Shown: positions 5,679-38,758 of the stretch, piece after piece
How positions within the stretch are numbered: position 1 is the first letter of the stretch
How the letters are laid out: every line of letters begins with the position of its first letter
Source of the DNA: a bacterium
Lineage (GTDB): Bacteria; Patescibacteriota; Patescibacteriia; UBA1558; S5-K13
Assembly (NCBI GenBank): GCA_029555085.1
Contig: JAKPTO010000026.1
Coordinates: forward strand, 37,217 to 101,216
Direction of reading: 5' to 3'
DNA: 64,000 nucleotides
Position numbers and translations under genes: made by a program
The notes under the pieces: model-generated
Database searches by the model: none
Seen by the model: only the letters and a program-made list of their open reading frames with translations
What the model was told of the DNA's origin: nothing

Positions 5679-6341
5679 TTATTTTTGTGATTCTTCTTTT
5701 GTTTCCTCTGGTTCTTTGGTTTTTTCAGTTGTCTCTGGTGTTTCTGATTTTTCTTCTTCTACTGTCTCTGCCTTAGCTGGTTTCGCTATTACTATTGGTT
5801 GGTCTCCGTCAGTTAAAATTTCAACTCCGGACGGAACTTCTAAATCTGAAACTAAAATCATATCATTATAATTTTCAAGTTTAGATATATCTACTTCAAT
5901 TGATGAAATAATTTGACTTGCGAGACATTCAATTTCAATACGATCCATTGCTTTCACAAGAATCGCTCCTAGTTCTTTTACGGCTTTTGATTCGCCTGAA
6001 AAATTAATTGGGATTTCAACTGTCAATTTATTTTTTGCATCAAATCTATACAAATCAGCATGAATTATTGATCCAGTGATATGATCTTTGGCTATATCAT
6101 GTATAATTACTGGGATTTTTTTGTCTTCAAATTCTAAATTTAAAACCTGTGACTCACCCGTGGTATTAAAAATTTTCATAAACTCAGAATAAGAAACCTG
6201 CAAATTTAAATTTTCATGCTTTGGACCATAAACAACAACAGGTAAATACCCAGACGCTATGAGATTTTTCGCGCTTAAGCCACCAAAATTTTCTCTTTTT
6301 TGCGCTTTTAAGATTAATTCTGTCATTTTTTTAGCTTTCAA
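5679..6341 (-). CDS. rplY: 50S ribosomal protein L25 / general stress protein Ctc
   Basis: bL25 fold sequence (LKAQKRENFGGLSAKNLIASGYLPVVVYG...) with an acidic C-terminal extension typical of the Ctc form. Confidence 0.75.
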   Translation of the reverse strand: MKAKKMTELILKAQKRENFGGLSAKNLIASGYLPVVVYGPKHENLNLQVSYSEFMKIFNTTGESQVLNLEFEDKKIPVIIHDIAKDHITGSIIHADLYRFDAKNKLTVEIPINFSGESKAVKELGAILVKAMDRIEIECLASQIISSIEVDISKLENYNDMILVSDLEVPSGVEILTDGDQPIVIAKPAKAETVEEEKSETPETTEKTKEPEETKEESQK

Positions 6342-13303: not shown

Positions 13304-13531
13304 TTATTGTTTATTTTTCAAATATGATTTTATTTCGGCAATTGTAAAACGTTTATTGGTTTGGAGCCGTTCTATTTCTTTTATTGTTTTTAATGCTTTA
13401 CTTTTTTCATATAAACGATACCCGCCTCTTGTAAAAGAATCGGGTTTTAATAAACCCTCCTTGGTATAAAAATGTATTGCCGATGGCAATCTATTTATAT
13501 GAGACGCGAGTTCTCCAATTTTTAGTAACAT
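13304..13531 (-). CDS. MerR-family HTH transcriptional regulator (short)
   Basis: LKIGELASHINRLPSAIHFYTKEGLL matches the MerR N-terminal HTH. Confidence 0.55.
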   Translation of the reverse strand: MLLKIGELASHINRLPSAIHFYTKEGLLKPDSFTRGGYRLYEKSKALKTIKEIERLQTNKRFTIAEIKSYLKNKQ

Positions 13532-13727: not shown

Positions 13728-14207
13728 TTATTTGTTTTGCTCTGCGATATACTGATTAATTGCTGTTACTACTTTTCCGTCTGTCTTTAATTCTTCTATA
13801 AAAATAACATGAGCTTTATTTATAGACATTTCATCTTTTGGTCCATGTAATTCATTTCCTAATTTTACTAAAGATAGTCCTTGTTGTTGCTGTGTTGAAT
13901 CAGCTGGTTGTAATGCTGTTGTTACTTGTAAGTAGTATATATTCCTTAAAGTAACTTCTTCGTTGGTATTTTTTACAACATTGCCAAAGTAAACCTGACC
14001 GTTTGATAAAAATACTGCTTGCCATTTACCATTAGATCCATCTTTATCAATACCTAGAATATTAAATTTTGTAAATCTAGATACTCCATAAAGACATACT
14101 AGTATAACAGCAATAACAATTACTACTGTCATTATCCATCTAAAAATGGATTTCTTTTCTACTGGTTCTGTTACTTTTGTTGTAACATTTTCCGTTTTTT
14201 TGTCCAT
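13728..14207 (-). CDS. Single-pass membrane protein, hypothetical
   Basis: N-terminal TM helix (IMTVVIVIAVILVCLYGV) followed by an extracytoplasmic domain of about 110 aa. Confidence 0.35.
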   Translation of the reverse strand: MDKKTENVTTKVTEPVEKKSIFRWIMTVVIVIAVILVCLYGVSRFTKFNILGIDKDGSNGKWQAVFLSNGQVYFGNVVKNTNEEVTLRNIYYLQVTTALQPADSTQQQQGLSLVKLGNELHGPKDEMSINKAHVIFIEELKTDGKVVTAINQYIAEQNK

Positions 14208-14350: not shown

Positions 14351-14773
14351 TTATTTGGTTTTTTCTACATACAAAGGAGCCACTCCTATTATCTTATCTG
14401 TGCTTGGTCTATATAAAATTACTTTCATGGATTTTGTATATATAAGCAAATTATCGCCATTTTCTGCATTCTCAAAAAAAGGATAATCTTTTAATTTTTC
14501 TTCATTTAAAACATTTGCAACCTGAGGAATTTCATCAGATGGCAATTCTATTAATCTTGAAACTCGTTTTATTATTTTTTCTGATCGTCCTCTATCTCCC
14601 ATATTTAGTTTGTAAGAATTTGATTTGATTTTTTTGTAAACAACTACAACGCCAAAACATATTCCAACAATTAAAATAATTATAATTATTATTTTAAATA
14701 ATTTTTTAAAATTAAAACTTTTCTTCTTTTTCTTTGAAAGTATTCTTAGATCTAGAACTCTATTTTTACTCAT
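14351..14773 (-). CDS. Single-pass membrane protein, hypothetical
   Basis: Lys-rich N-terminus, TM helix (IIIIIILIVGICFGVVVVY), then a small extracytoplasmic domain. Confidence 0.35.
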   Translation of the reverse strand: MSKNRVLDLRILSKKKKKSFNFKKLFKIIIIIILIVGICFGVVVVYKKIKSNSYKLNMGDRGRSEKIIKRVSRLIELPSDEIPQVANVLNEEKLKDYPFFENAENGDNLLIYTKSMKVILYRPSTDKIIGVAPLYVEKTK

Positions 14774-14812: not shown

Positions 14813-17800
14813 TTATTCTTCTATTGTCTCTATTGTGACTTCTGTTTCTGTTATTGTTGTTTCTGTTGTTTCCTCTGCCGAAGTTTCCTGTTCTGTGGTT
14901 GTATCTGTTTGAGTTGTGTCTATTGAGGTTTCCGTGGTTTGATTACCTGATGAGATATCATCCTCTATTGTAGTTTCTGTTGTGTCTTCTATTGGAGTTT
15001 CTTGTTCTGTGGTTGTTTCTGTTTGAGTTGTGTCTATTGAGGTTTCTGTGGTTTGATTACCTGATGAGATATTGTCCTCTGTTGTTGTTTCTGTTGTGTC
15101 TTCTATTGGAGTTTCTTCTATTAAACCCTGCTCTGTTGAAGATGAAATCAATTCTGATGTTCCATCGCTACTAAATATCATTCCCTTGTATGCTCCGAAT
15201 GAATGCCAGTCAAATATCACATCAGTTTCTTGAGTATTTTCTATCTTTATCACAAAACCATTCTTTGTAACTTCGTCTATATAATAACCGCCATTGATTA
15301 ATGCGCGTGGAGAAATCGTTATAACTGGATCATTTCTATATTCATGCTCAAACATGACTGCTGTACTTGTTGCGCCTGTTAAAATCTTTGCTTGACCAAC
15401 CGTATCACGACCTAAATCAACTAATCCCTCAACTTGCAATGCGCCAGACAATACCAAATCTTCTAATGCGTCAAGCGACATTCCAAATTGCGCTCTAATT
15501 TCATTAATTTGTTGCTGTTGTTCTTGTATTGCTGAAACCATTACTGGCGTAAATGATTCATAGTCAATTGATTTGTTTCCACTTTCATCAATATTTAAAA
15601 GTTCTGGCGCAATTTCTTCTACTTGAGTTGTTATAAATCCTAATTTATTAATTTGTGTTTCATTTTCTATCCATACGAAATTTACTGCTTCAATGTCTGT
15701 TAATTTATTAAGCGAAATTATTCCATCTAATTGATCTATTGTTGCATTTTCTACAATTTGTTCTGAAGATGGGACAGAATTATTTAATTGATTTCTTAAA
15801 TTAGTAATTTCATTATTCAATGAATCAAATCTTTGTTCTATGTTATATGAATCTATAATGCTTTGTATTTCTGAAATATTTTCATCTTTTGCTTCTAAGA
15901 CCTTAGTTGTCACCTCTTTTTCAATTTCATTCACTGTTACACTCTTATTGTTTCTTGAAATTAATACATTTATAGTTCCAAAATCTCCACTAAATGATTC
16001 AAGCGCAACTCCGACTGTTGAGTCGCCCTGATTTGCTTTCATTAAATATCCTTGTCTTGATGCACTTGTCAAAGAATCACCCGGATTAATATCTCCATTT
16101 TCATTTGAGACAAATGCTGGAATCTGACCTAAAAGCGCTACTAATTTATAATTTGGATTATTTTTGTATTCTTCTTTTGAATTTCCTATAAATCCAGGCT
16201 TGGTTGAAATAATTCCAATAATATTTGAATCACTTGATGTGGCGCACCTTGATATAGCATTGTTATTTGCAAAGTCAATACATACAACCTCTCCTGATGA
16301 AATATTTGTATTATTAGTATAAAAATATTCTGCATAGTCAGCTGCTGGTGTGTCATAACCAGTATCAGCTAAAACTAAGCCATCGGAGCTAACCGTAAAG
16401 ACATTATCCCCTTCCGAATTCTGCAAAACAAATCCCAATACTTTTTCCTTTCCAAGATTTTTTATCGTGGTTCGACCAATATAATCTACTGAAAAAAGAG
16501 TTTCTTCGTATTCCACCCTACTTTGTATCTCAAATAAATTAGCGGAAGGGTGAGCTGATGTATTTACTACTTTTAACACCGGAACATGCCCCAAGTCACT
16601 AACTATTGTAGCTGATTTAATTAATTCTATAGGTACATCCGCGATTATTTTAGATTGCGATAGTGTTAAAGGGGAAACATTATTGGTTTCATCTCTAAAT
16701 TCTAATGTCCCATATGCATATGAAGAAGAATGTGGTCTTATTGCCCAAGTAGATGTTCCTACGTGAATTTCTTCTGCCCAAAGATCAGTCCATCTATAAT
16801 CTGATGAACCAAGAGTATAGGTTAAATTTGACTCAGGAACAATATCTCGCATAGTTGATGTTCCTGTTACATTGAGTGTTCCAGCACCTGTATTTATTAC
16901 TAAATCTGTTCCGTTCCATAAAATATTTGCATCTTGATCTTCTCCGAGATAGAGAGCAGCATTATCTTCGTCTATATAAACATTACCTGTAGCAAAAGCT
17001 CGAAAATTAGCAAGATCTGCACGTGAATGACCTAACCATATCTTAGACGACGGTTGAGTGGCAAAAAAACTAGAGAGAGTATATATAAGACCATTAACTC
17101 TAAGAGCGCTACCAAAATATGAATGACCTTTTACATCTAAAGTTCCTTCTACATATAAATCATTATCATCAAGTTCAAGGGTACTAACTCCGCTATTTGA
17201 TATTGCATTATATGGTAACGCGCTTACTCCACCTATATTAAATACATTATTATTAGCAAATACTATATGACCACCTGTAGTATTTATTGTTAAATCTCCT
17301 GAAGAATCAGTTCCAAATGTTGTTGAAGTTGCAGAATTGTATCCTAGTGTCAATTGTGGTGAAGTTGAGTTTACTACATGAAGCGCGGATGACGGCGCTG
17401 TAATACCGATACCGACATTACCACCATTAAAATATGATGCACCCCTAGAATGCAGTAAAATAGTCGAGTCATTAGATGAATTTCTCATGGTAAGGGATGT
17501 ATTAGATCCGCTACGCAACAAAACTCCTCCTGAACTAGGCACAATATTTAACTGGCCAGACGCTCTAATTTCCTGATTTCCAGATGATGGGAAAAATGAT
17601 ATAGATCTAGTTTTAGTAGAATCATAAAAATAAACATCTCCAGTAACATCTAGAGTTGCTTGCGGATCATTTGTCCCAATTCCGACCCTTCCTGAATTAT
17701 AATAAATACCATTACCATATGCGTTTGGGGTCCACCGGGATGACACAATTGGCGATCCGTTTATAGAAAATCCGGCTGCATCTACTATTCCAGTTGAAGC

Positions 17801-20356
17801 AGTGATAGTTGCACGACCGCCGACTGATAAGTTATTCGTTAGTGTAGTGGCACCGTTTAAAGTTATAGTATCGTCACTATTTGCATATAAAATTCTTCCC
17901 CAATCACCATCACTGGCTCCATATTTTACAAACGCAGTTCCTCCACCCACGCCATAAGAACCCATTGGTGCGGTATAACCAGCAGCAAGATGTTCATCTG
18001 ATATAACAATATTCATTTCTCCTCCATAACCATCTACAACAAAACTTGCTATTGTATTAACATTACTATCAACTACTGTTAGCGCATACTGTGGTGTTGT
18101 GGTACCGATTCCGACGTTGCCTGATCCGACATTAACTGCTATGTTATTATAATGCATTATATCGTTGTAACCGCTAATATCTACAGCCTCATAAACTACC
18201 ATTGGTGCATCTCCCGCTAAATCATATATACCAAACTCATCGTTGCTAAACATTCCACCATTACCAATATAAAAACCTCCTTTGCTATAATCGCCACTTT
18301 CAAAACTAGCAATCATATCTGTACTTGAAACATGTAAACCGCTCAGAGGATCTGTCGTCCCTATCCCAACATTTCCTGAGTTATAGTAAATATCAGATCC
18401 ATTTGTAATCCACTGAGATGATACAATTGGCGAGCCATTTATAGAAAATCCGGCTGCATCTACTATTCCGGTTGAAGCGGTGATAGTTGCGCGACCGCCG
18501 ACTGATAGATCGCCTATAAACGAAGAAGCGCCTGATTGTAATATTTTTAATACTGTACCACCATAATAATAAGCATTCTCACTAGTATCATACACGGCTA
18601 TATAAGTATCATCACCCTTATTAATTAAACCTATTTCATCAGTTATGGCGCCAGAAACCAATGCTACTGGACCATATAAACCATTAGCAATTATCTCTGA
18701 TCCAAAATCAGCAATTCCCGTTAAAGCAGTAATAGTTACCTTGCCTCCTATTGATATATCTCCGGTAAAATTAGCTCCTGATAAAAGTGCATAAGAAGTT
18801 GAAGCAGCAGTCCACACAGGATCTAATTCTGTAATTAAACTTCCAAGTGGTGAACCATTCCAATAAAGATCTCCACCTAGATTATATAATGTATCTACTG
18901 TTACAGCTGGAGTTGAAGATGCGATATTCAAACCATTATTTGTTACTACTAATCCCATTGCGGTTGTTGTTGCAAACGAAGAACTTCCAGTTACTATTAA
19001 ACTAGCAGATGAATATAAATCTGATGATAAATTTACAGGACCGTCAAAAGTATTTATTCCCGTCCATGTATTATTATCAGATAAAGACACCCCTCCCCCA
19101 TTTTGAACTATCGTAGTTCCACCACCAATAAAATTATATACGCCCCCAGTAAAAGACCCGTCCTCCCCTTTATCTCCTTTGTCTCCTTTTTCGCCAGTAT
19201 CTCCTTTTGGTCCAGCATCTCCCTTGTCTCCTTTTTCACCTTTTACCAAAATTGTTTTTTGGATAACCTGCGTATCACCATTTGCTGTATGATAATTTTG
19301 AATTATTTGGGGTTGAACTTTGTCGGTAGCCCCGAGATAAATATTTTTTATCTCCTGCGTTTCAGCTGCATCTCTTATAAATCGAACAACGCTATCCCTA
19401 AGAACTAAATTTATTGATAAAACTTTATTCGCAAATTTTTTTGATATATTCTCAGAATAATCTCTATATTTATTTAAAGAAACAAGAGAATTAATTATTT
19501 TCTGTAAAAATGTTAGCTTAGATGAAATATTGACAGACACCTCGCTTGCGCCAAGTACTCTATGAGATGGGTTATTTTCTGTATAATAATTATCTTTTTT
19601 ATTTAAAAACGCTCTTGGGTTAAAATATGAAATCCTATCAACAACAGAATGAGCTAATTCTTTATAATTATTTTTATAGCGTTTTAATAAATTAAAATTA
19701 TTAAGTTGTGAATTTCTTAAAAATTTACCAAAATTTGTTAATTTATTTTTTATGTTTGAAAATTGATATTTGTAAGCATTGGAAAATTTCTCAGAAGAAA
19801 GTGATAAAATTCTTTCTACTTTATTTTGATTTTCTCCATAAGTACCGAGAGCAGAAGGAATAAAAAATCTCATTGTCAAAATTAATAAAAAACTTATAGC
19901 TAAAAAATTTGCCAATCCAATTAATTGATTCGGAGAATGTGGTTTTGGGGATCTAAACTTTGAAGATTTTAAATTAGAATATTTTTTAGACTTATCAAAT
20001 TTAAAAAATGTAAAAACTGACAATAAAAAATTTCTAAAAATGTTTACTATATGATAAAAAGTTTTTTTAAATTTTTCTTTATTAAAAAAATGAATTTCTG
20101 CTAAAAGTATGTCTGGTAAATTTGGTTTTCTATTAAGTGAAACATCTTCATACTGAATTTGAAAATTCATCTCACTATTCTTCTCTTCATACTCTTTCAA
20201 GTAGCTTTTTTTCGTAAACCATATTCCATCAATTTTCTCTGCTTTTAATTTTCCCTGCCTCGCGCGAAGAGATAAATATTCTTGTGAATATGAACAATAC
20301 TTTGTCGCCTGTGACAAAGTAATGTATGGTTCTATTTGTTGATTTTGTTCGTCCAT
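14813..20356 (-). CDS. Giant membrane-tethered fibre protein: N-terminal HTH-like domain, TM helix, collagen-like GXY repeats, beta-helix repeat region, C-terminal tail-fibre intramolecular chaperone (peptidase S74) domain, Thr/Glu-rich tandem repeats
   Basis: HTH_17/excisionase-like N-terminus (YITLSQATKYCSYSQEYLSLRARQGKL...IDGIWF). TM helix LIGLANFLAISFLLILTMRFFIP. Collagen-like GEKGDKGDAGPKGDTGEKGDKGDKGEDG. Repeated LSVGGRATITASTGIVDAAGFSINGSPIVSS. S74-like GFITTQVEEIAPELL...IDYESFTPVMVSAIQEQQQQINEIRAQ. Confidence 0.6.
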   Translation of the reverse strand: MDEQNQQIEPYITLSQATKYCSYSQEYLSLRARQGKLKAEKIDGIWFTKKSYLKEYEEKNSEMNFQIQYEDVSLNRKPNLPDILLAEIHFFNKEKFKKTFYHIVNIFRNFLLSVFTFFKFDKSKKYSNLKSSKFRSPKPHSPNQLIGLANFLAISFLLILTMRFFIPSALGTYGENQNKVERILSLSSEKFSNAYKYQFSNIKNKLTNFGKFLRNSQLNNFNLLKRYKNNYKELAHSVVDRISYFNPRAFLNKKDNYYTENNPSHRVLGASEVSVNISSKLTFLQKIINSLVSLNKYRDYSENISKKFANKVLSINLVLRDSVVRFIRDAAETQEIKNIYLGATDKVQPQIIQNYHTANGDTQVIQKTILVKGEKGDKGDAGPKGDTGEKGDKGDKGEDGSFTGGVYNFIGGGTTIVQNGGGVSLSDNNTWTGINTFDGPVNLSSDLYSSASLIVTGSSSFATTTAMGLVVTNNGLNIASSTPAVTVDTLYNLGGDLYWNGSPLGSLITELDPVWTAASTSYALLSGANFTGDISIGGKVTITALTGIADFGSEIIANGLYGPVALVSGAITDEIGLINKGDDTYIAVYDTSENAYYYGGTVLKILQSGASSFIGDLSVGGRATITASTGIVDAAGFSINGSPIVSSQWITNGSDIYYNSGNVGIGTTDPLSGLHVSSTDMIASFESGDYSKGGFYIGNGGMFSNDEFGIYDLAGDAPMVVYEAVDISGYNDIMHYNNIAVNVGSGNVGIGTTTPQYALTVVDSNVNTIASFVVDGYGGEMNIVISDEHLAAGYTAPMGSYGVGGGTAFVKYGASDGDWGRILYANSDDTITLNGATTLTNNLSVGGRATITASTGIVDAAGFSINGSPIVSSRWTPNAYGNGIYYNSGRVGIGTNDPQATLDVTGDVYFYDSTKTRSISFFPSSGNQEIRASGQLNIVPSSGGVLLRSGSNTSLTMRNSSNDSTILLHSRGASYFNGGNVGIGITAPSSALHVVNSTSPQLTLGYNSATSTTFGTDSSGDLTINTTGGHIVFANNNVFNIGGVSALPYNAISNSGVSTLELDDNDLYVEGTLDVKGHSYFGSALRVNGLIYTLSSFFATQPSSKIWLGHSRADLANFRAFATGNVYIDEDNAALYLGEDQDANILWNGTDLVINTGAGTLNVTGTSTMRDIVPESNLTYTLGSSDYRWTDLWAEEIHVGTSTWAIRPHSSSYAYGTLEFRDETNNVSPLTLSQSKIIADVPIELIKSATIVSDLGHVPVLKVVNTSAHPSANLFEIQSRVEYEETLFSVDYIGRTTIKNLGKEKVLGFVLQNSEGDNVFTVSSDGLVLADTGYDTPAADYAEYFYTNNTNISSGEVVCIDFANNNAISRCATSSDSNIIGIISTKPGFIGNSKEEYKNNPNYKLVALLGQIPAFVSNENGDINPGDSLTSASRQGYLMKANQGDSTVGVALESFSGDFGTINVLISRNNKSVTVNEIEKEVTTKVLEAKDENISEIQSIIDSYNIEQRFDSLNNEITNLRNQLNNSVPSSEQIVENATIDQLDGIISLNKLTDIEAVNFVWIENETQINKLGFITTQVEEIAPELLNIDESGNKSIDYESFTPVMVSAIQEQQQQINEIRAQFGMSLDALEDLVLSGALQVEGLVDLGRDTVGQAKILTGATSTAVMFEHEYRNDPVITISPRALINGGYYIDEVTKNGFVIKIENTQETDVIFDWHSFGAYKGMIFSSDGTSELISSSTEQGLIEETPIEDTTETTTEDNISSGNQTTETSIDTTQTETTTEQETPIEDTTETTIEDDISSGNQTTETSIDTTQTDTTTEQETSAEETTETTITETEVTIETIEE
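14880..15125. repeat. Intragenic tandem repeat, about 117 bp x 2, encoding a Thr/Glu-rich C-terminal repeat
   Basis: Near-identical DNA unit (ttctgtggttgt.tctgtttgagttgtgtctattgaggttt...) appears twice. It corresponds to the protein repeat ETPIEDTTETT.EDNISSGNQTTETSIDTTQT.TTTEQ. Confidence 0.7.
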
Positions 20357-20759
20357 ATTGACAAGCTTGTATGAAATTTTATTTTTGTTTTAGATTTCAT
20401 ATCTTCTATTATTATATATAATTATATATAATTTACCCGATATATTCAATACTTTTTATCCGATATATTATTTTTTATACCCGATACGGTTTTTATCCCT
20501 TTATTTAAAGGACAAAAATCATATGGGATAAATTTTTATAAAATAAGACAAAGCATATAAATTTGACAAATTTTCAATAAAAAAATAATATTTTTCAAAA
20601 CCCAAATAAATTACCTATACAAATATTTATAGAAGTGGAAAACTATATAACCAATTTAGTTTAAAAATTAAATAAAATTACCTGAAAGTTAGAGTGCTTA
20701 CTTTATTATTTTTAACAAAGGCGCTATACTAAAATTATAAATATATCAAAAAATAATAT

Positions 20760-30154: not shown

Positions 30155-32746
30155 TTATTTACTAAAAACCAGTTTCTTGTCAAAAGAAAATCCGTTTACA
30201 TTTACCCGACAAATATAAACACCGCTTGAGCAAATTTTTCCTGAATCATCTTTTGAATCCCAGTTAATAGTTGCTGATTTGGATTTTGTGGGGACAAACT
30301 TTTTTACAAGTTGTCCTTTGATGTTATAAATCGAAATTTGAACTTCAGATGGTTCTTTTGTGTCTTCTATATCAAACATTAAGCTTACTGTGGAGTTAAA
30401 TGGATTTGGAAATATTTCAAATTTCTTTTTTAATAAATTCACTGTTTGACTTGGTGCGAGTATAAGTGACACATCATCAATCCAAACAGGAACATCTTGT
30501 TCTCCCAAATTCCATGAAATGCGTGCAATTCCAGAACTTGTGGCAGTAAAGCTCATTGTATAATTTTGCCAATCAGTTCCAGTGCTCACAACTTGCCATA
30601 GGCCAAAATTATTCCAGGGAGAATTTTCATTATATAACTCTACCTGGATTTGTCTTTGTGAGGTAGATTTCGCCCAGAAAGACAAAGTATAATTTTGACC
30701 CGATACAATGTTTAAATTCTGGTACAATTGAACCTCGAAGTGCAAACCATTTTGATTGGGATCAATAAATATTGAGTTATTCCCTGAATGGTAAATAGAA
30801 TTATCAATATAATAACTCGCTGTGGAATTGAGATCGCCAACCTCAAATGGTGCAAAATTTCCTGTTTCAAAACCAGGATTTATTATTAAATTATCTCCTT
30901 CTGTTTCCATATCAGATATTTTTTCAAAAACAACATTATCAAAATATTTACAACCAGCTGACTCGCCAATCATAAAATTCAAACGCGCTAATTGATCAGT
31001 TGTATTTGCTATAAAAATATACTGATATTTTTTCCAAGTTGAAGTGAGATTAATCTCTTTCCATAGACCATAATTATTCCATGGATCATTGTTGTTTTGT
31101 ATGCAAAATTTAATTCCCGATGCAGGATTGGATTTTGCCCAAAAAGAAACATTATATGACTCGCCTGATTCAATTTCAACAAGTTGCATAAGTTCTTCTT
31201 CGTAAAATAATCCGGAATCACCAATATTGATTTCTGCTTTAAAGTTTCCATCAACGCAATCACCGGATGTTATATCGAAACTTGCGCTATTTCTACTGTC
31301 ATTTAAAATCCAATAATTACAAATTCCAGAATCAAATCCACCGTCTTCGAAGTCACCACCCTGATAATCAACCATTCCACCACCAGCAAAATATTGAATA
31401 TTTTCTCCGGATTGAAATGAATTAACATCGCTATCGGAAACTTCTAAAACATTAGCAAAATTAAACCCATAGGTATTGAAGGTTGATTCGTCTATAATGA
31501 GACGACGCAATCCATTTTCTATATAATAACAAGCTGGACCTGGACCAGAAATTAATTTTCCATCCATGATTTTTTCATAGCTTACAAATGGCGCAATCTG
31601 ATAATAATTTAAAACATTTTGAGTAACTACTATATTAAAATTTGAATGATAATAGTTAATCATATAAACATTGTCAGAAAGCAATCTCAGAAGAATCTTT
31701 TGTCCAGTGTATGAAGAAGAAACTTCAATCCCTCGTTTAATAACATATCGTTCGTTCATGTTATTTACATTTTGCAATACTGTTCCGTATGGATAATCGC
31801 TTGAAGATGTAAGTTCAGATCCTTCCGCAAATTGAGATAAATATGAACTTGTTGTTGGAATCCAAACATCCGCAGAGTATCCTAATTGTTGCCAATTATT
31901 TACCCTTCGCTTCACAATTGTCGTAGAATTGTTTGACTGATAATCAAATACCCATCTCTGAGAATTCTCATCATAAACACAAGTTCCAACTTTTGGACTA
32001 ATATCAGGACCAATTGAAAATGAATTGAATTCTTCTTGACTAATTTCAACTGCATCAGACCAGTCAAATCCCCAAGTATAAAAAGGTGTCTCACTAGTAA
32101 ATCGTTGCATTTGCCTGTCACGAATCCAATAATAATTTGGAGTATTAGTTACATGAACCAATAAATCATCTGGTAGAATTCTTGGTTGTGAAACAACAAT
32201 GCCTGGGAGTGATGGCGGGTTTGATACGAAATAATGTTTATCTGGATTACAACCATTATTATATTGTTGTGTGTTGTTACTATACCAACCATAGGGATCA
32301 ATTGGTTCATTATTATAGTAAACACCAAAGTGAAGGTGAGGGTTGGTTGAATAACCAGTGTCACCCACCTTTCCTATAAATTGTCCTTGGTAAACAAATT
32401 CTCCGACAGAAACAGTTGCAGTATGGTAAAGCATGTGCGCGTATATTGTTTTGTAACCATTTCCATGGTCTATTTTCACATAATTACCATAATCCGTTCC
32501 TGTTCCATCTGGAATATCTCTTTGCACCGCAATAACCTGTCCACCATAAGCAGAAAGAATTCTTGTTCCCTCTACTGCGGAATAATCAATTCCGTAATTA
32601 TAGTTATAACTATAACTAGGTGGATATTGCCAACCAGATGAAATTATAAAATTTCCTTCAATGGGGAGTGTGAATATATGATCCACACCGAACAAATAAC
32701 CACAACACATTGTGATTATTACTAGAATTGTCATGAGAGTTTTCAT
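30155..32746 (-). CDS. Secreted peptidase M23 (LytM-type) with carbohydrate-binding-module-like domains and a T9SS-type C-terminal sorting domain
   Basis: Signal peptide. M23 motifs: HxxxD region and HLHFGVYY (HxH). CBM4/9-like segments. C-terminal roughly 85 aa IFPNPFNSTVSLMF...ISIYNIKGQLV...INWDSKDDSGKICSSGVYICRV...KKLVFSK matches the Por_Secre_tail pattern. Confidence 0.65.
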   Translation of the reverse strand: MKTLMTILVIITMCCGYLFGVDHIFTLPIEGNFIISSGWQYPPSYSYNYNYGIDYSAVEGTRILSAYGGQVIAVQRDIPDGTGTDYGNYVKIDHGNGYKTIYAHMLYHTATVSVGEFVYQGQFIGKVGDTGYSTNPHLHFGVYYNNEPIDPYGWYSNNTQQYNNGCNPDKHYFVSNPPSLPGIVVSQPRILPDDLLVHVTNTPNYYWIRDRQMQRFTSETPFYTWGFDWSDAVEISQEEFNSFSIGPDISPKVGTCVYDENSQRWVFDYQSNNSTTIVKRRVNNWQQLGYSADVWIPTTSSYLSQFAEGSELTSSSDYPYGTVLQNVNNMNERYVIKRGIEVSSSYTGQKILLRLLSDNVYMINYYHSNFNIVVTQNVLNYYQIAPFVSYEKIMDGKLISGPGPACYYIENGLRRLIIDESTFNTYGFNFANVLEVSDSDVNSFQSGENIQYFAGGGMVDYQGGDFEDGGFDSGICNYWILNDSRNSASFDITSGDCVDGNFKAEINIGDSGLFYEEELMQLVEIESGESYNVSFWAKSNPASGIKFCIQNNNDPWNNYGLWKEINLTSTWKKYQYIFIANTTDQLARLNFMIGESAGCKYFDNVVFEKISDMETEGDNLIINPGFETGNFAPFEVGDLNSTASYYIDNSIYHSGNNSIFIDPNQNGLHFEVQLYQNLNIVSGQNYTLSFWAKSTSQRQIQVELYNENSPWNNFGLWQVVSTGTDWQNYTMSFTATSSGIARISWNLGEQDVPVWIDDVSLILAPSQTVNLLKKKFEIFPNPFNSTVSLMFDIEDTKEPSEVQISIYNIKGQLVKKFVPTKSKSATINWDSKDDSGKICSSGVYICRVNVNGFSFDKKLVFSK

Positions 32747-33634: not shown

Positions 33635-36600
33635 TTATTTTTTATATAAAGTGGAAACAAATCTTTGCATTCTGTCATTCAATACATCTAAAGCAATTCT
33701 TGTACTTTCTGGTGCGTTTTTTGGTATGCTCTTTAATGTGAGTTCCCAAAATTTTATCTCAAAATTATTTAACTTACTACTACCTGTTCTTTCCAGCTTT
33801 ATATCGCTTAATAATTTAAATGCTTTATCGTGTACAATGTCTTTATTAGCACTCTCCGTAATTATTCTATATAATTCAGTACCTCGTTCTCGGCTATAAA
33901 AAAATGTTCCAACTGAACTAACATCTGATGTCTGTTTAATAATGGAACCATTTTCATCAAATACTTGTTTAAGTGTTCCGCTTCTTCCCGCCTCCTTAAA
34001 AGTAACGAGCTTTGTATAATCATCGAGCCATTTCTCTGTTATTGTTCCTGTATTTGTTTTTATAATTTCTATATTTGGCTCGGAAATCAATTCTTGAAAA
34101 TTATTCTCTGTAATTTGCTCTAAGCCGGGACTTTGTGGATCAAGATCTGCATAATATTCCCCATGGTCTTTTTGAATTTCCAACACCCGATTATTACCAA
34201 CATTCGTTTCAAATTTAACTGGAATATTGTCTTCAACATCTTTCAATGCCTCTTCCAACTCAGAAAATGTATTAACTCTTTTAACTCCTAGTATCTCTGT
34301 TTGATTTTGAGCTATAGGCACACGATCTAATATATCTTCGACAGGTGTCCGTCCTGATATACCTTTGGTAGGCACATGATCTGGCTCAATAGTCAAATTT
34401 TGAACTGAGGATACTTGGTCTGATATATCTTCTATATTTGACTCAGAAATCAATTCTTGAAAATTATTCTCTGTAATTTGCTCTAAACCAGGGAGATTAG
34501 GATTAAAGTCTGTGTAATATTCTCCATTGTCCTCTATAATCCGTACAACATTACCACCAATTTCTACATCAGCCGAAGCACCTGCCTCTTTAAACTGAAA
34601 TACTTCTTTCAAATCAGAAAAATCCCTAACCACTGGAACCTCTGATGTTTCTATAGGTACATTAGTCAATGTATCTGGGGTGACTTCTATACTTTCTGTA
34701 GGTACATGATCTAACATATCTTCAGTGGGTACATGATCTGGTTTAATAACTGGGATTTCTGTATTACCATTATTAAACTCATCTTGCAACCTCGCTATTT
34801 GAAAATTTAACTCCTCTCCAGTATTTTGCTGTTGTGAAAGTAATTCTCGAGTTGCATTTAGTTCCTCAGATATCTTCGCTTGTATATTGGATGGAATATT
34901 TGGATCATCTAGCATTTCTTCTAATCTGGTAATTGATAATTTTGACTTTATTATATCATCATTTAACTCAAAATATTTACTTTGTAGCTCTTCTATTTGC
35001 TCAGGATAATTTGACTTAACTATATCTTCTACGGGTAGCACTTCTCTTACATTTGTTGGTCTGACAATTTCTGAAACATTAGGACCATGTTTGGGCTTAA
35101 TGACGCCCATTACATTATCTACATAATGTTTGTAAAAACTTTCATAAGACTTGGGTTTGACAAAGGCAAAAACCTCGTTAGTTTCTGGATCAACGACAAC
35201 TCTTGCTCCCGGCGCAACAACATTTGCATCAAAATTTTTAAGAATCAATGGTTCGCCATTAGGTCCAGAAGTAACAAGTGTCATTTTTGAACCACGAGGC
35301 ATGCTTATACCCAAAGTTTCAGAAACACTAGAGCCCTTAGCTACTGGAACGCCTTGATCTGCCAACTCTTGAATACGTTGAGGGTTCAAACCCTTAATAT
35401 CTTGAAAATTAGATACATCTGATTTTTTTGGAGAAAAACTTTGTGATGCCTCATTTATATCATCCGCTCGACTTGTTGAGATAACCTGATCTTTTTTACC
35501 AAAAACAGAGTTCTTCAAATTCTCAAAAGACTTTCCTAATCTCTCCATTCTTGAAACTATATCAGCATAACTTACAAAATTATCTTTCATGTTTTCCAAT
35601 ACATTACCCTGAGTAAATGTTTTGGTAAAACATTGTACCATGTTATCCACACTTGCACCAGATGTTTGTATTCCTGATAAAGCTTGCGTTCCCATACCAA
35701 GAGCCATTAATAATTCCCCCCAAGCTCTCATCATGGTAGTTTTTTTATCAAAACCTTTTAATTTTCTAACATCACTATGTTTTTTTAATTTATCATTTTC
35801 TACATAAAAACTTGATTCATATCGTTTTCCAGATAATCCATAATATGTTTCTAAAAACATTGTTTTAAATGCATCTCCAAGATATTGATGTGCTTTCATT
35901 TTTTCGCCAACCTTATTCCAGGAATATTCCTTTTGATATTTCAATGCTGATTTATCTAATTTTCCACCAAATGCAAATATTCCATACATAGCACCTCGAA
36001 GTCCAGCCGCACCTATCCCGCCACCAAAAACCATAGCCGTATTAAGTGCATCTTTTACAAGTATACTTCCATTTACTGTTCCTTGTATATAATCTTGCAA
36101 AATATAATCTATTTTTTTTGACCTTTGTTTTCTTAAATCATTTTTTGATTCCAAATTCGTAAGTAGAACTTTGTTTAATCTATTTCTCATTGTCATCTGA
36201 TCATGATCAGAAATAATATACAATAACTTTTCTTTATCTGTTAATGAACCTTCGTTAAACTTTTTTTCTATTTCTTGTCTTTTTTCTTTTGGTAAATCAT
36301 AATAATTCTGAGATCTGGCATTCTTTATCATTTCATTATATTGCATTGCTTTTTCTTTTACATCATCTACAGAAATTTTTTCATTTTTTATAAAATTTTC
36401 TCTAATTTTATTATTCTCCATTGAAAGAGTTTTTATTTTACGCTCTAATTCTTCTCTTTCTGTTTCATCTTTTGTGTTTTTATATATCTCTACATATCTA
36501 GATATTGCAGCAACTCTTCTTTTGTAATTATCATCTTGGTAAAGCTTCTGAAATTTTTCCTTATTAGAAGAAATCAACTCTGCTAAATCGCTTGTTTTCT

Positions 36601-38758
36601 TTTCTGCCTCAACCCTATCTTTCTTTGTTTCACTTTTTTGATCAAAATATTTATACACATCTGTTCTCTTGCCAAGAGCAAAATTAATTTTTCCTCCACT
36701 TATTTTATCAAGTCCATGCGCAAGTCCAGCGCCAATCCAATCACCAATGGCTTTAACACCAAACATTGAACCGATAATATTATATATTCCCTTACCTGTT
36801 GCTGCGCATAAGGCCCTCTTTTCTTCTTTTTCTTCTGGTGTTTTTGGTTTCTTAAAAATCAAATCAAAAGTTTTCTTAACCCTATCCTTAAATTTAACTT
36901 TTATCTGTTCTTCTTTTAACTCTTCATTGATAATATGTTCTTCCGGCGTATTAGATTGAATTTCTTTTTCTGATTCAAAATTATTGTAAGTAGATGTCCA
37001 TTTTATTTCTTGTCCCCATTCTGGACTGGTATGGGTAGATGTCCATTTTGCTTCCTGTCTCTCTCCTTGACTCGTATTAGTTTCCCATTGTTGTTCTTGA
37101 TTAGTATTAGATATTGTCTCTGGTTTTATTTCTTTTATTCCAAGTACATTGCTTATATATGTATTTGTATTTTCAAGAAGACTTGGTGCTATTTTTGTCA
37201 CAAAATTTACAATAAAAGACTCATTACCCTCCCTACCCTCATCTTCTACTCTATCCTTAGCTTCTAAAAATTTTCTTACCTCAATAATCTGATTATCGCT
37301 TAGTCTACTCAACTTGTACTTTAAAATATCAACTCCGGTATTTTCTAATTCTAAATGTTTATTAAAAAATTTTTCCTCTGTTTTCGGCAAATCGTCTTCA
37401 AAGACTTGTTTTTCTTTAATAACCTCCTCTTCTGATTTTTCAAAATTCTCTGATTTTGAAGTCTCTTCTTTTTCTGATTTAATCTTTTCTTCTGAATTTC
37501 CTAACAACTCTTTAACTTTATCTCTTAAACCGTATGCTCTAGTAACGAAATTAATATGATAGCTTTCGTGTCTCACTTGATCAATTATCTGCTTCAATTC
37601 CTCTGGACTATATTTTTCTTTGGTACCATCTATTGTCCCAATTTCTTCTATGGCAGAAAATAATTCCTCAAAATTTTTAGCATTGCTAATTTTTGCTTTT
37701 TGATTTTCTAGTAACTCTACAACCTTATCTCTTAAACCGTATGTTCTAGTAACATAAGTATTGCGAAGATCTCCATTCCTTACTTGGTTAATGATCTGCT
37801 TCAATTCCTCTGGACTATATTTTTCTTTGGTACCATCTATTGTCCCAATTTCTTCTATGGCAGAAAATAATTCCTCAAAATTTTTAGCATTGCTAATTTT
37901 TGCTTTCCTATCTTCTTCTGTTTCTATTGTATTTTTTTTATTTTTCCCCTCAATTTCTTTTTTAGATTCACTTTCTCTCATCATTTCAATGAGTTTTTTT
38001 GCATGCATTTTAGCCCATTGAATTTGTCCTTCATTATTTTCATAATCTAAACCTGCTTCTGGGTTAGGATGATTATCTTTTTCCCTATTTTCTATATCAT
38101 GTTGTTTCCAACTCATAAGAATTTTATACGCAATAGCTGTTTCTAAATCATTTGTAGTATCTCTATACATGTCATAATGTTTGTAATAATCATTAAAAAT
38201 GCCTTTATAATCTATACCCGTTTCCATATCTGGATTTTCAAAAAAATTCTTATACACTTTTTCAACTTCAGATTCCATATATTTATAATCTTCTGGATTG
38301 TCTGGTAATTCTGTTTTTATAACTCTCTCTGGAACCTGATCTAAAACATTGAGATCTTTTTCTGATTCAAATTTTTCATCTATTTTTTCTTGTCCATCTT
38401 CGGGGATTTCTTTCGCATACTCGTCTGATGCTGATATAATTTCTTTTGCCCTTTTTATTCTCTTATTAATCTCAGGGACTAATTTTCTTAAATCTTCTAA
38501 ATAATTAAAAAAAAGAGAACGATCTTCATCAAATGTTTCTTGGTCACTCGATATAAGTATATATTGATCTGCACTAAATGATATATCCGACCTAATTTCT
38601 TCGAGTAATTCTTCACCCCTATTTAATATTTTCTCTAAAGCTTGTTTCTTAAATCTTATGAATCCATCTGGGTTATTATTATCTATAAATTCTCTGTATT
38701 GCTCATTCTTATCAACTAAATTTTTTAAATTCTCTGTAGGTTGTTTTATTTTATCCAT
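33635..38758 (-). CDS. Giant repeat-containing protein (1707 aa): coiled-coil N-terminal region, Gly-rich amphipathic/hydrophobic central segments, repeat-rich C-terminus. Function unknown.
   Basis: No signal peptide. A roughly 70-aa module (KAKISNAKNFEELFSAIEEIGTIDGTKEKYSPEELKQII.QVR) is duplicated. Gly-zipper-like segments GIGAAGLRGAMYGIFAFGG. C-terminal repeats PGLEQITENNFQELISE.NIE appear twice. Confidence 0.5.
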   Translation of the reverse strand: MDKIKQPTENLKNLVDKNEQYREFIDNNNPDGFIRFKKQALEKILNRGEELLEEIRSDISFSADQYILISSDQETFDEDRSLFFNYLEDLRKLVPEINKRIKRAKEIISASDEYAKEIPEDGQEKIDEKFESEKDLNVLDQVPERVIKTELPDNPEDYKYMESEVEKVYKNFFENPDMETGIDYKGIFNDYYKHYDMYRDTTNDLETAIAYKILMSWKQHDIENREKDNHPNPEAGLDYENNEGQIQWAKMHAKKLIEMMRESESKKEIEGKNKKNTIETEEDRKAKISNAKNFEELFSAIEEIGTIDGTKEKYSPEELKQIINQVRNGDLRNTYVTRTYGLRDKVVELLENQKAKISNAKNFEELFSAIEEIGTIDGTKEKYSPEELKQIIDQVRHESYHINFVTRAYGLRDKVKELLGNSEEKIKSEKEETSKSENFEKSEEEVIKEKQVFEDDLPKTEEKFFNKHLELENTGVDILKYKLSRLSDNQIIEVRKFLEAKDRVEDEGREGNESFIVNFVTKIAPSLLENTNTYISNVLGIKEIKPETISNTNQEQQWETNTSQGERQEAKWTSTHTSPEWGQEIKWTSTYNNFESEKEIQSNTPEEHIINEELKEEQIKVKFKDRVKKTFDLIFKKPKTPEEKEEKRALCAATGKGIYNIIGSMFGVKAIGDWIGAGLAHGLDKISGGKINFALGKRTDVYKYFDQKSETKKDRVEAEKKTSDLAELISSNKEKFQKLYQDDNYKRRVAAISRYVEIYKNTKDETEREELERKIKTLSMENNKIRENFIKNEKISVDDVKEKAMQYNEMIKNARSQNYYDLPKEKRQEIEKKFNEGSLTDKEKLLYIISDHDQMTMRNRLNKVLLTNLESKNDLRKQRSKKIDYILQDYIQGTVNGSILVKDALNTAMVFGGGIGAAGLRGAMYGIFAFGGKLDKSALKYQKEYSWNKVGEKMKAHQYLGDAFKTMFLETYYGLSGKRYESSFYVENDKLKKHSDVRKLKGFDKKTTMMRAWGELLMALGMGTQALSGIQTSGASVDNMVQCFTKTFTQGNVLENMKDNFVSYADIVSRMERLGKSFENLKNSVFGKKDQVISTSRADDINEASQSFSPKKSDVSNFQDIKGLNPQRIQELADQGVPVAKGSSVSETLGISMPRGSKMTLVTSGPNGEPLILKNFDANVVAPGARVVVDPETNEVFAFVKPKSYESFYKHYVDNVMGVIKPKHGPNVSEIVRPTNVREVLPVEDIVKSNYPEQIEELQSKYFELNDDIIKSKLSITRLEEMLDDPNIPSNIQAKISEELNATRELLSQQQNTGEELNFQIARLQDEFNNGNTEIPVIKPDHVPTEDMLDHVPTESIEVTPDTLTNVPIETSEVPVVRDFSDLKEVFQFKEAGASADVEIGGNVVRIIEDNGEYYTDFNPNLPGLEQITENNFQELISESNIEDISDQVSSVQNLTIEPDHVPTKGISGRTPVEDILDRVPIAQNQTEILGVKRVNTFSELEEALKDVEDNIPVKFETNVGNNRVLEIQKDHGEYYADLDPQSPGLEQITENNFQELISEPNIEIIKTNTGTITEKWLDDYTKLVTFKEAGRSGTLKQVFDENGSIIKQTSDVSSVGTFFYSRERGTELYRIITESANKDIVHDKAFKLLSDIKLERTGSSKLNNFEIKFWELTLKSIPKNAPESTRIALDVLNDRMQRFVSTLYKK
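37520..37950. repeat. Intragenic tandem duplication, unit about 213 bp x 2, with a stretch of about 130 bp that is 100% identical
   Basis: The sequence ttatctgcttcaattcctctggactatatttttctttggtaccatctattgtcccaatttcttctatggcagaaaataattcctcaaaatttttagcattgctaatttttgcttt occurs at about 37578 and again at about 37790. Confidence 0.75.

Follow-up and report, generated by a model that had tools for sequence, protein, structure and literature searches.

Bacteria of the candidate phyla radiation (CPR, or Patescibacteria) are ultra-small episymbionts with very few classical regulators. The described systems closest to the protein treated here lie in phage fibres and tailspikes, in small DNA-binding proteins and in membrane-bound regulators. 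Excisionase- and MerR-like small binders typically bind tandem direct repeats. For the phi29 pre-neck appendage protein gp12, structures exist of the released C-terminal fragment (PDB entry 3gqh) and of the immature protein (3suc). The catalytic dyad of S74-type chaperones consists of a Ser and a Lys five residues further on, S911/K916 in endoNF and S587/K592 in MyRF (PMC8326128). Here we describe a gene in a 64,000-nucleotide stretch of bacterial DNA (contig JAKPTO010000026.1 of assembly GCA_029555085.1, positions 37,217 to 101,216), which as a whole is called the window below and supplies all positions unless another locus is named. The gene encodes 1847 residues in which a helix-turn-helix (HTH) module, a transmembrane (TM) helix and a long fibre of phage-type folding modules are joined in one chain. 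We read the product as a cellular, single-pass, N-in/C-out membrane-anchored adhesin fibre made of phage tail-fibre parts, probably trimeric, with an HTH module that plausibly binds CCGATA boxes; we put the probability of this reading at about 0.55. What is new is a sequence motif conserved in the promoters of HTH-TM family genes from divergent CPR lineages.

The best supported module of the protein is a predicted Peptidase_G2 chaperone domain, for which sequence, modelled fold and motif all agree with the family. With residues 1291-1731 as query, many Patescibacteria proteins were found to be 33-57% identical over residues 1307-1493; several of them carry Pfam Peptidase_G2, and the homologues exceed the gathering threshold (GA) of PF11962. 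A profile of the 17-sequence family (A1) matches PDB entry 8h2i (a 1343-residue chain, E=1.3e-8) and 3gqh (E=0.0034), and also the chaperone domain of the Dpo31 tailspike. In an AlphaFold (AF2) model of residues 1285-1730, the G2 region has a predicted local distance difference test score (pLDDT) above 95. Foldseek matches the G2 model to 3suc (E=3e-6) and 3gqh (E=3e-5), and predicted phage proteins in BFVD match it with E-values down to 6e-14. The D, A and E of the DYAEYF motif are invariant in the 17 aligned sequences. DYAEYF aligns with DFAEYF, residues 1-6 of 3gqh and hence the beginning of the fragment that phi29 gp12 releases; autocleavage is therefore predicted at this motif, and the G2 domain is likely the cleaving module of the protein. 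Cleavage by G2 domains does not appear to be universal, because D[YFIV]AE is missing from 18 of the 71 G2 domains in our sample.

A second chaperone-like region follows. A profile built from four S74 domains of homologous CPR fibres that pass the Pfam threshold gives 53 bits on this region, and the match begins after the catalytic motif. The joint profile matches solved S74/ICA domains, namely 6f45 (long tail fibre distal subunit, E=2.5e-14), 8jov, MYRF (7dc3, E=2e-4) and the L-shaped fibre pb1 of T5 (8hqz, E=1.6e-3). S1530 is aligned to the catalytic Ser, and V1535 stands where four of four bona fide homologues have Lys. The module is therefore homologous to S74 and, because the catalytic Lys is replaced, should not cleave itself by the Ser-Lys mechanism. 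A preliminary description of this DNA had proposed an S74 auto-chaperone; the homology of the core held up, and the dyad on which autocleavage depends did not. None of the Foldseek top 50 for the C-terminal AF2 model is an S74 structure. Among the 279 proteins collected, this is the only one in which G2 and the S74 core occur together.

The fibre ends in a lectin-like domain and an acidic tail. H_lectin (PF09458) reaches E=2.8e-4 on the homologue P0086 (21.4 bits, below GA 24), and BLAST connects our lectin-like region to P0086 at 1e-10. In the AF2 model this region has a pLDDT of ~90, and Foldseek matches it to 4q56, 2ccv and 3wmp with probability 1.0 (E 4-7e-3, TM(target) ~0.5). The modelled fold resembles the Helix agglutinins (Helix pomatia agglutinin), other H-type lectins and the R2 pyocin fibre tip. 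In the relatives P0094, P0102 and P0119, a large Cys-rich C-terminal domain ending in GFRCAK replaces the lectin-like domain after G2 and a coiled coil. Because some relatives carry such a domain at this place, whatever follows G2 has the look of a functional head that can be exchanged. The earlier list of modules had neither the G2 nor the lectin-like domain; its HTH, TM, collagen and S74 modules were each recovered. That list had also placed more sequence, including Thr/Glu-rich tandem repeats, after S74, and this is what we find.

Between the membrane and the G2 domain lie a juxtamembrane region of ~200 residues, a collagen-like run and a long shaft. The GXY repeats noticed earlier amount to nine triplets; PHROGs tail-fibre families match this short run with E=1.5e-6. 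The shaft contains internal repeats in ~228-residue units, with four GNVGIGTxxP motifs and a 33-residue segment that recurs 226 residues apart. These internal repeats were read from a DNA-level comparison, and protein self-BLAST gave no off-diagonal rows. The shaft has no match in Pfam or among PDB sequences; of the putative beta-helix region with internal repeats in the preliminary description, it is the repeats that we confirm.

On the cytoplasmic side, we accept from modelling that the N-terminal segment folds as a winged HTH of the excisionase/MerR type. HTH_17 matches at E<0.01 in 15 of 25 family members, with 8.9e-6 as the best value. A 75-residue AF2 model built on the family alignment has a pLDDT above 90 over the module, and its topology is strand, helix, helix, beta-hairpin wing, helix (E12-13, H14-17, H25-34, E39-42, E45-48, H50-68). 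The closest solved structures by Foldseek are the RdfS excisionase, the RacA DNA-binding domain, Pukovnik Xis and BldC (8dgl, 5i44, 4j2n and 6ama), with probabilities of 0.96-0.99. The HTH family profile found nothing relevant among PDB sequences, only ankyrin noise. No other part of the protein is as well conserved: the segment is 50-65% identical to that of otherwise unrelated giants, and 50-70% identity is seen across unrelated proteins in general. Its consensus is YISLxEAxKxCSYSQEYLSLRARQGKLKAxKIGRNWxTTKEWLxEY, and R31, R33, K36 and K41, which are basic and belong to helix 2 and the wing, are nearly invariant. The HTH_17-like N-terminus of the preliminary description is thus supported by the family and by the model.

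The strongest hydrophobic stretch of the protein is found at residues 148-166 (mean Kyte-Doolittle value 2.09), and a weaker one at residues 100-118 (1.28). The 28 residues ahead of the TM helix contain 8 Lys/Arg and 1 Asp/Glu. This charge pattern fits a signal anchor with a predicted N-in/C-out topology, and the single strong helix agrees with the TM segment proposed before.

A very large and apparently undescribed CPR protein family is defined by the HTH-TM cassette. When 1.84 billion representative proteins (clusters at 50% identity) were searched with the module profile, 5085 clusters were found at E<=1e-3 and 2150 at E<=1e-10. Members range from 83 to 6890 residues and typically have one to three HTH copies, a TM helix and a variable ectodomain. 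A TM helix lies within 200 residues after the module in 100 of 133 newly retrieved representatives and in nearly all local matches. Among the best-scoring members (P0133-P0265), 97 of 133 have two HTH copies and five have three. About 17 distant giant homologues (1040-2823 residues) carry the same N-terminal module and TM helix within one open reading frame (ORF). Bona fide S74 domains stand at the ends of the giants P0004, P0008, P0016 and P0019 (E 1e-11 to 1e-22), and other giants end in G2. Homologues of the fibre protein come from Parcubacteria, Nealsonbacteria and other Patescibacteria. Soluble Fic-domain proteins (P0061, P0068 and P0083-85) have the module too, at their C-terminal end. 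Our literature searches for the HTH-TM-fibre architecture in CPR found nothing that describes this family. The architecture had been called unprecedented; at the database level this fails, because thousands of CPR proteins share the cassette, among them many giants whose fibres carry bona fide S74 or G2 domains.

TATCGGRTA occurs three times in the window against an expectation of 0.63, and all three matches lie in this promoter; TRF (Tandem Repeats Finder) describes the region as a repeat of period 21 with 2.4 copies. At loci retrieved by way of homologous proteins, the hexamer stands upstream of the gene on the opposite strand, as CCGATA. The exact 17-mer CCGATAGTTATCCACAG is present upstream of the genes of homologues at loci L006 (5689-5705) and L007 (5940-5956). 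Locus L008 has CCGATAG-N12-TTATCCACA (5892-5918) and, in addition, TATCGGATA 15 nt ahead of the ATG. The composite element, in which CCGATAG stands next to TTATCCACA, is also found at L105, L107 and nine genome loci. Four further loci were then picked by protein homology alone, and all four have boxes within 300 nt upstream. Taken together, the eight loci have 17 boxes in 2.4 kb where 1.06 would be expected (Poisson P ~3e-15), with boxes upstream of eight of the eight genes. Since the first four loci suggested the box hypothesis, the last four should be read separately; they alone have 10 boxes in 1.2 kb.

The 17-mer was also scanned through one genome per species, 185,579 species in all. There were 96 matches, 84 of them outside CPR, mostly in Actinomycetota and Proteobacteria, and these are an uninformative background as expected by chance. 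Nine of the 12 CPR matches are directly upstream of, and in the same orientation as, an ORF with the HTH module at its start (E 1e-28 to 1e-34). The distance in these nine is 36-151 nt, measured from the edge of the element to the start of the stop-to-stop reading frame. They belong to Saccharibacteria, Torokbacteria, Minisyncoccales, Nealsonbacteria and Parcubacteria. Of the remaining three, one is intragenic and two are ahead of other proteins that have a TM helix at the N-terminus. The element lies 6-9 nt upstream of a TTGAC(A) -35 sequence, and the remaining spacer is not conserved. The idea of a regulator gains indirect support from these conserved CCGATA boxes, to which the HTH module may bind.

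In the reading that we prefer, the order from the cell outward would be HTH module, basic linker, TM helix, ~200-residue juxtamembrane region, collagen run, ~900-residue shaft, G2 domain, coiled coil, S74 core, lectin-like domain and acidic tail. Outside the cell, the collagen run would join with the chaperone modules of the C-terminal part to nucleate a homotrimer, as happens in phage fibres. The chain might be cut ahead of D1340 by the G2 module, and the S74 remnant would act as a trimerisation element only. The distal lectin-like domain may bind a carbohydrate on a host or partner cell, by which the protein would act as an adhesin. The membrane-tethered HTH would bind CCGATA boxes and thereby exert feedback on its own gene and on paralogues. 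Because the family promoters carry conserved CCGATA boxes and the recognition helix is nearly invariant, we consider the HTH module the most likely binder of the boxes. Box binding with transcriptional feedback is the most interesting step of this scheme and the least secure.

Several results weigh against this reading. Searches of Pfam, NCBIfam and PDB sequences with the whole protein gave collagen matches and otherwise matches below threshold. On the query itself, no Pfam model reaches its gathering threshold: HTH_17 scores 15.2 bits (E=0.026, GA 27), yet its whole 51-position profile is covered; Collagen scores 18.4 bits (GA 27.2); S74 scores 19.2 bits (GA 22) over profile positions 15-56 only; H_lectin has E=0.056; and Peptidase_G2 has no Pfam match when the query is searched alone. 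The Foldseek E-values for the 75-residue HTH model are weak (0.04-0.5). The wing of the query reads KIDGIW where the family consensus has KIGRNW; the same variant is found in the C-terminal HTH of soluble Fic proteins from the same search. The S74 region has a pLDDT of only 30-80, in models that are monomers of a probably trimeric protein. The promoter in the window is without the TTATCCACA part of the composite element, and TTATCCACA equals the canonical DnaA-box consensus. Small free MerR/HTH_17 proteins of 64-75 residues are encoded near the HTH-TM gene in three of eight loci (window 13304-13531, minus strand; L106 836-1030; L108 1045-1254), and they could be alternative candidates for binding the CCGATA boxes. 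Finally, if G2 cleavage were followed by release as in phi29, by analogy the lectin-like domain would be shed, which is awkward for an adhesin tip.

The last points but one lead to a different view of the same fibre, in which the HTH would be a cytoplasmic docking or positioning module for a partner or for the cell-wall synthesis machinery, and the boxes would be read by a small MerR/HTH_17 protein or, at TTATCCACA, by DnaA. There is precedent for such docking, as the HTH of RodZ binds MreB and the MerR-like CbpM binds a J-domain; CbpM (3ucs) is among the structural neighbours of our HTH model. An FtsW/RodA/SpoVE (SEDS) gene is directly upstream of the HTH-TM gene in five of eight loci (L006, L008, L106, L107 and L108), small free MerR/HTH_17 genes adjoin in L106, L108 and the window, and the high identity of the module across unrelated proteins fits a protein partner as well as DNA. 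On the other hand, the top structural neighbours are DNA-binding excisionase/MerR domains, the basic residues named above are nearly invariant, and the same module is C-terminal in soluble Fic proteins, where HTH domains are usual. Moreover, the HTH module is by construction the sole factor present at every box-bearing locus, whereas the small MerR genes are present in only three of eight. We regard docking as possible, with odds clearly against it.

Box binding by the HTH can also be carried further than in our preferred reading. The family would then be a large undescribed CPR class of membrane-tethered excisionase-type HTH regulators, with ectodomains from small to multi-thousand-residue fibres, which bind CCGATA boxes (often with the DnaA-box-like TTATCCACA just upstream of the -35 sequence) at their own promoters and couple surface or host contact to transcription. 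In the present gene, slippage between T7 and T6 alleles (see below) could turn a tethered HTH into a free one and back. This wider proposal is tentative.

The predicted G2 cut bears on another possibility, that the C-terminal 508 residues are the cargo. Cleavage before D1340 would free a soluble trimer of G2, coiled coil, S74 core, lectin-like domain and tail, to act as a lectin or effector secreted by the cell, with the shaft as no more than a scaffold. The intact D1340 and E1343 and the alignment of D1340 with residue 1 of the released phi29 fragment speak for it, and the varied domains after G2 in homologues (lectin-like, or Cys-rich and ending in GFRCAK) suggest a functional rather than disposable C-terminal part. 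Against this, cleavage at D1340 is a sequence prediction, and the D[YFIV]AE motif is absent from the 18 G2 domains mentioned above. Xiang and colleagues are said to have found in 2009 that release of the phi29 fragment needs ATP, which is absent outside the cell. We consider a released cargo doubtful, and continue to favour a fibre that stays attached as an adhesin.

With so many phage-type modules (collagen run, G2 and S74), PHROGs tail-fibre families on the collagen run and phage proteins as the strongest structural matches, the gene might be a tail-fibre gene of a phage or prophage that encodes a virion structural protein. The surroundings argue otherwise. No phage genes were seen around the fibre ORF within the window, as the preliminary description had also stated for its flanks. 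One flank has SmpB, IF3 and L20, and the other two small membrane proteins, a 75-residue MerR protein and IleRS; L35 is likewise among the flanking genes, and farther out are LigA, GatA, RecG, ABC transporters and ABC/HlyD genes. The protein has a cytoplasmic domain and TM anchor in place of a virion-attachment domain, and homologues lie in conserved chromosomal synteny between FtsW and rpoB. A virion protein is highly improbable, and the housekeeping genes on either side led us to reject a prophage origin. With ~28% G+C in the window, this is a chromosomal gene of a low-GC, tiny and uncultured bacterium of the Patescibacteria/CPR type. The earlier proposal of a cellular, non-prophage, membrane-anchored fibre derived from phage tail-fibre modules is supported.

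The join between HTH and fibre could also be an artefact of frameshift or assembly, with separate genes in reality. Sister contigs with a T6 allele of the T7 homopolymer (L001-L004; JGI 3300036967 and 3300036965, Logan SRR11812287 and SRR11811202) do encode a 102-residue HTH-only ORF and a 1736-residue TM-fibre ORF, the latter starting at a TTG 24 nt later. These contigs are 99.85% identical to the window gene (8 mismatches and one 1-nt gap in 5844 aligned nt). In contrast, JGI, ENA and NCBI assemblies contain at least 22 contigs with the intact 1847-residue form, in 10 sequence variants, and a single ORF encodes both HTH and TM in the ~17 distant giants and in thousands of family members. The artefact explanation is hardly credible and was rejected, because many assemblies hold the intact gene. 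Both the uninterrupted ORF and the fusion of HTH, TM and fibre in the preliminary description are borne out, the latter as a genuine and conserved arrangement; the strand, which was left unstated there, is minus.

A second, independent frameshift allele was found in one sister-strain contig, where GG is reduced to G at codon ~506 (window ~18838-18845) and ORFs of 506 and 1323 residues result (P0279 and P0277). The difference between T7 and T6 could be phase variation, pseudogenisation or sequencing error. Because the second frameshift is not in a homopolymer, occasional pseudogenisation is at least as likely as programmed phase variation at the T7 run. From the many intact contigs and the two kinds of deletion contigs, it follows that frameshifted alleles exist in nature and that the single ORF is the common state. 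The differences between the ten intact variants are nearly all in the shaft, at residues 529-1254 (529, 907, 942, 1015, 1094, 1105 and others), and the G2 and lectin-like domains are invariant among them. The features of the gene and its promoter are collected in Table 1.

Table 1. Features of the fibre gene and its promoter, with positions in the window.
Feature	Position	Strand	Basis or remark
Single complete ORF, 1847 aa + stop	14813..20356	-	Same sequence as NCBI HNZ86114.1/HOG37947.1 (annotated 'hypothetical protein [bacterium]')
Three direct TATCGGRTA boxes (reverse complement TAYCCGATA), candidate operator	20434..20486	-	Spacing 23 and 21 nt, 78-130 nt upstream of ATG
Promoter-like TTGAAT-17-TATAAT, overlapping the boxes	20421..20449	-	Consensus match only
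Cytoplasmic excisionase/MerR-type winged HTH module (aa 11-60)	20177..20326	-	Profiles, AF2 model, Foldseek
T7 homopolymer (codons 90-92)	20084..20090	-	T6 allele in sister contigs
Single TM helix (aa ~146-170)	19847..19921	-	Hydropathy and charge distribution
Collagen-like run, nine uninterrupted GXY triplets (aa 373-400)	19157..19240	-	GXY count, Pfam, PHROGs
Gly/Ser/Thr-rich repetitive shaft (aa 403-1285)	16502..19150	-	Internal repeats
Peptidase_G2-type (phi29 gp12 pre-neck appendage) intramolecular chaperone (aa ~1296-1500)	15857..16471	-	Profile, Foldseek, AF2
DYAEYF motif (aa 1340-1345; D1340...E1343), predicted autocleavage site	16322..16339	-	Alignment with DFAEYF
Dyad region, S1530 and V1535	15752-15775	-	Alignment with S74 homologues
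S74/ICA-type chaperone core without Ser-Lys dyad (aa 1540-1624)	15485..15739	-	Family profiles
H-type-lectin-like beta-sandwich (aa ~1640-1722)	15191..15439	-	Pfam sub-threshold, Foldseek, BLAST
Acidic Thr/Glu-rich tail (aa 1723-1847; 32% Thr, 20% Glu)	14816..15190	-	2.3 copies of 114-nt (38-aa) repeat

Some neighbouring genes were also noted. Directly downstream of the fibre gene are two small proteins of 140 and 159 residues (14351-14773 and 13728-14207, both minus strand), the first of which begins 39 nt past the fibre stop. Both have a short ectodomain and a single TM helix behind a basic N-terminus, are conserved in sister contigs and have no assigned family. A second giant ORF of 1707 residues (33635-38758, minus strand) has neither a Pfam match nor the HTH module. 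An 863-residue protein (30155-32746, minus strand) combines Peptidase_M23, CBM_4_9 and Por_Secre_tail, a sorting domain of the type IX secretion system (T9SS) type, which is unexpected for a CPR-like genome. At other loci of the family, LigA precedes the FtsW/RodA gene in L006 and L107, and a tetratricopeptide repeat (TPR) protein of 700-820 residues and then rpoB come after the family gene in L006 and L008. In L007 a TPR protein is downstream, with no rpoB within the fetched range.

Taken as a whole, the observations of the preliminary description are partly confirmed and its interpretation is partly supported. CPR bacteria would build long surface fibres from phage folding modules (G2, S74, a collagen run and a lectin-like tip) and fix them with a cassette of DNA-binding type. 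A link from contact to gene control might exist, because the family genes share a conserved promoter motif; since thousands of proteins begin with the cassette and this element accompanies it, the idea of a regulator is directly testable. Should the HTH bind the boxes, the family would amount to a contact-to-transcription device of wide occurrence; otherwise the cassette would still be an unrecognised lineage-wide module for anchoring surface proteins, and a useful marker for CPR adhesins.

The comparison with known systems can now be drawn more closely. The protein shares with the phi29 gp12 tailspike the G2 fold and the DxAEYF start motif, in both cases C-terminal to a long trimeric-fibre-like shaft. 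Unlike in gp12, the G2 domain is internal here, with ~350 more residues and further domains after it, the fibre is anchored to a cell membrane and not to a virion, and the cleavage is predicted. The S74 chaperones of endosialidase, T5 pb1 and S16 gp37 have a homologous core, and complete S74 domains exist in related CPR fibres; in our protein the dyad is broken at V1535 and the S74 core follows G2 and is not terminal.

MYRF and MrfA likewise combine a domain of DNA-binding type, a membrane anchor and an S74-type trimerisation module in one chain (PMC8326128). Their order is DNA-binding domain, S74/ICA and TM, as compared with DNA-binding-type domain, TM, shaft, G2 and S74 in the fibre protein, whose HTH is of the excisionase and not the Ndt80 type and whose dyad is inactive. 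Its chaperone lies across the membrane from the DNA-binding-type domain, so that S74 cleavage could not free the latter; for this reason and because of the inactive dyad, the protein is not MYRF-like.

RodZ, a partner of MreB in the RodA elongasome, has the same cytoplasmic HTH-TM layout, and the family genes often adjoin FtsW/RodA; its HTH is XRE-type, and the gene in the window is not beside FtsW/RodA. RdfS, Pukovnik Xis, BldC and the RacA N-domain are the best structural matches of the HTH module. These proteins are soluble, whereas in ours the module continues into a TM helix and a giant ectodomain. The three tandem direct boxes have the arrangement typical of sites for excisionase- and MerR-like binders.

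The ToxR-like character proposed earlier stands for the predicted topology, since ToxR, CadC and TcpP also have an N-terminal cytoplasmic domain of DNA-binding type, a single TM helix and an extracytoplasmic C-terminal part, and a further likeness is that the repeated operator-like boxes overlap the promoter of the fibre gene itself. It does not stand for the HTH, which is of the HTH_17/MerR class and not an OmpR/PhoB winged helix (Trans_reg_C of this type has no Pfam match on the fibre protein), and because the HTH class is wrong, the protein is not a member of the ToxR family. In place of a small sensor there is a fibre of 1680 residues, and binding to DNA is proposed here. The protein resembles a phage tail fibre that has become an adhesin anchored to a cell, and its layout is that of a membrane-integrated one-component regulator.

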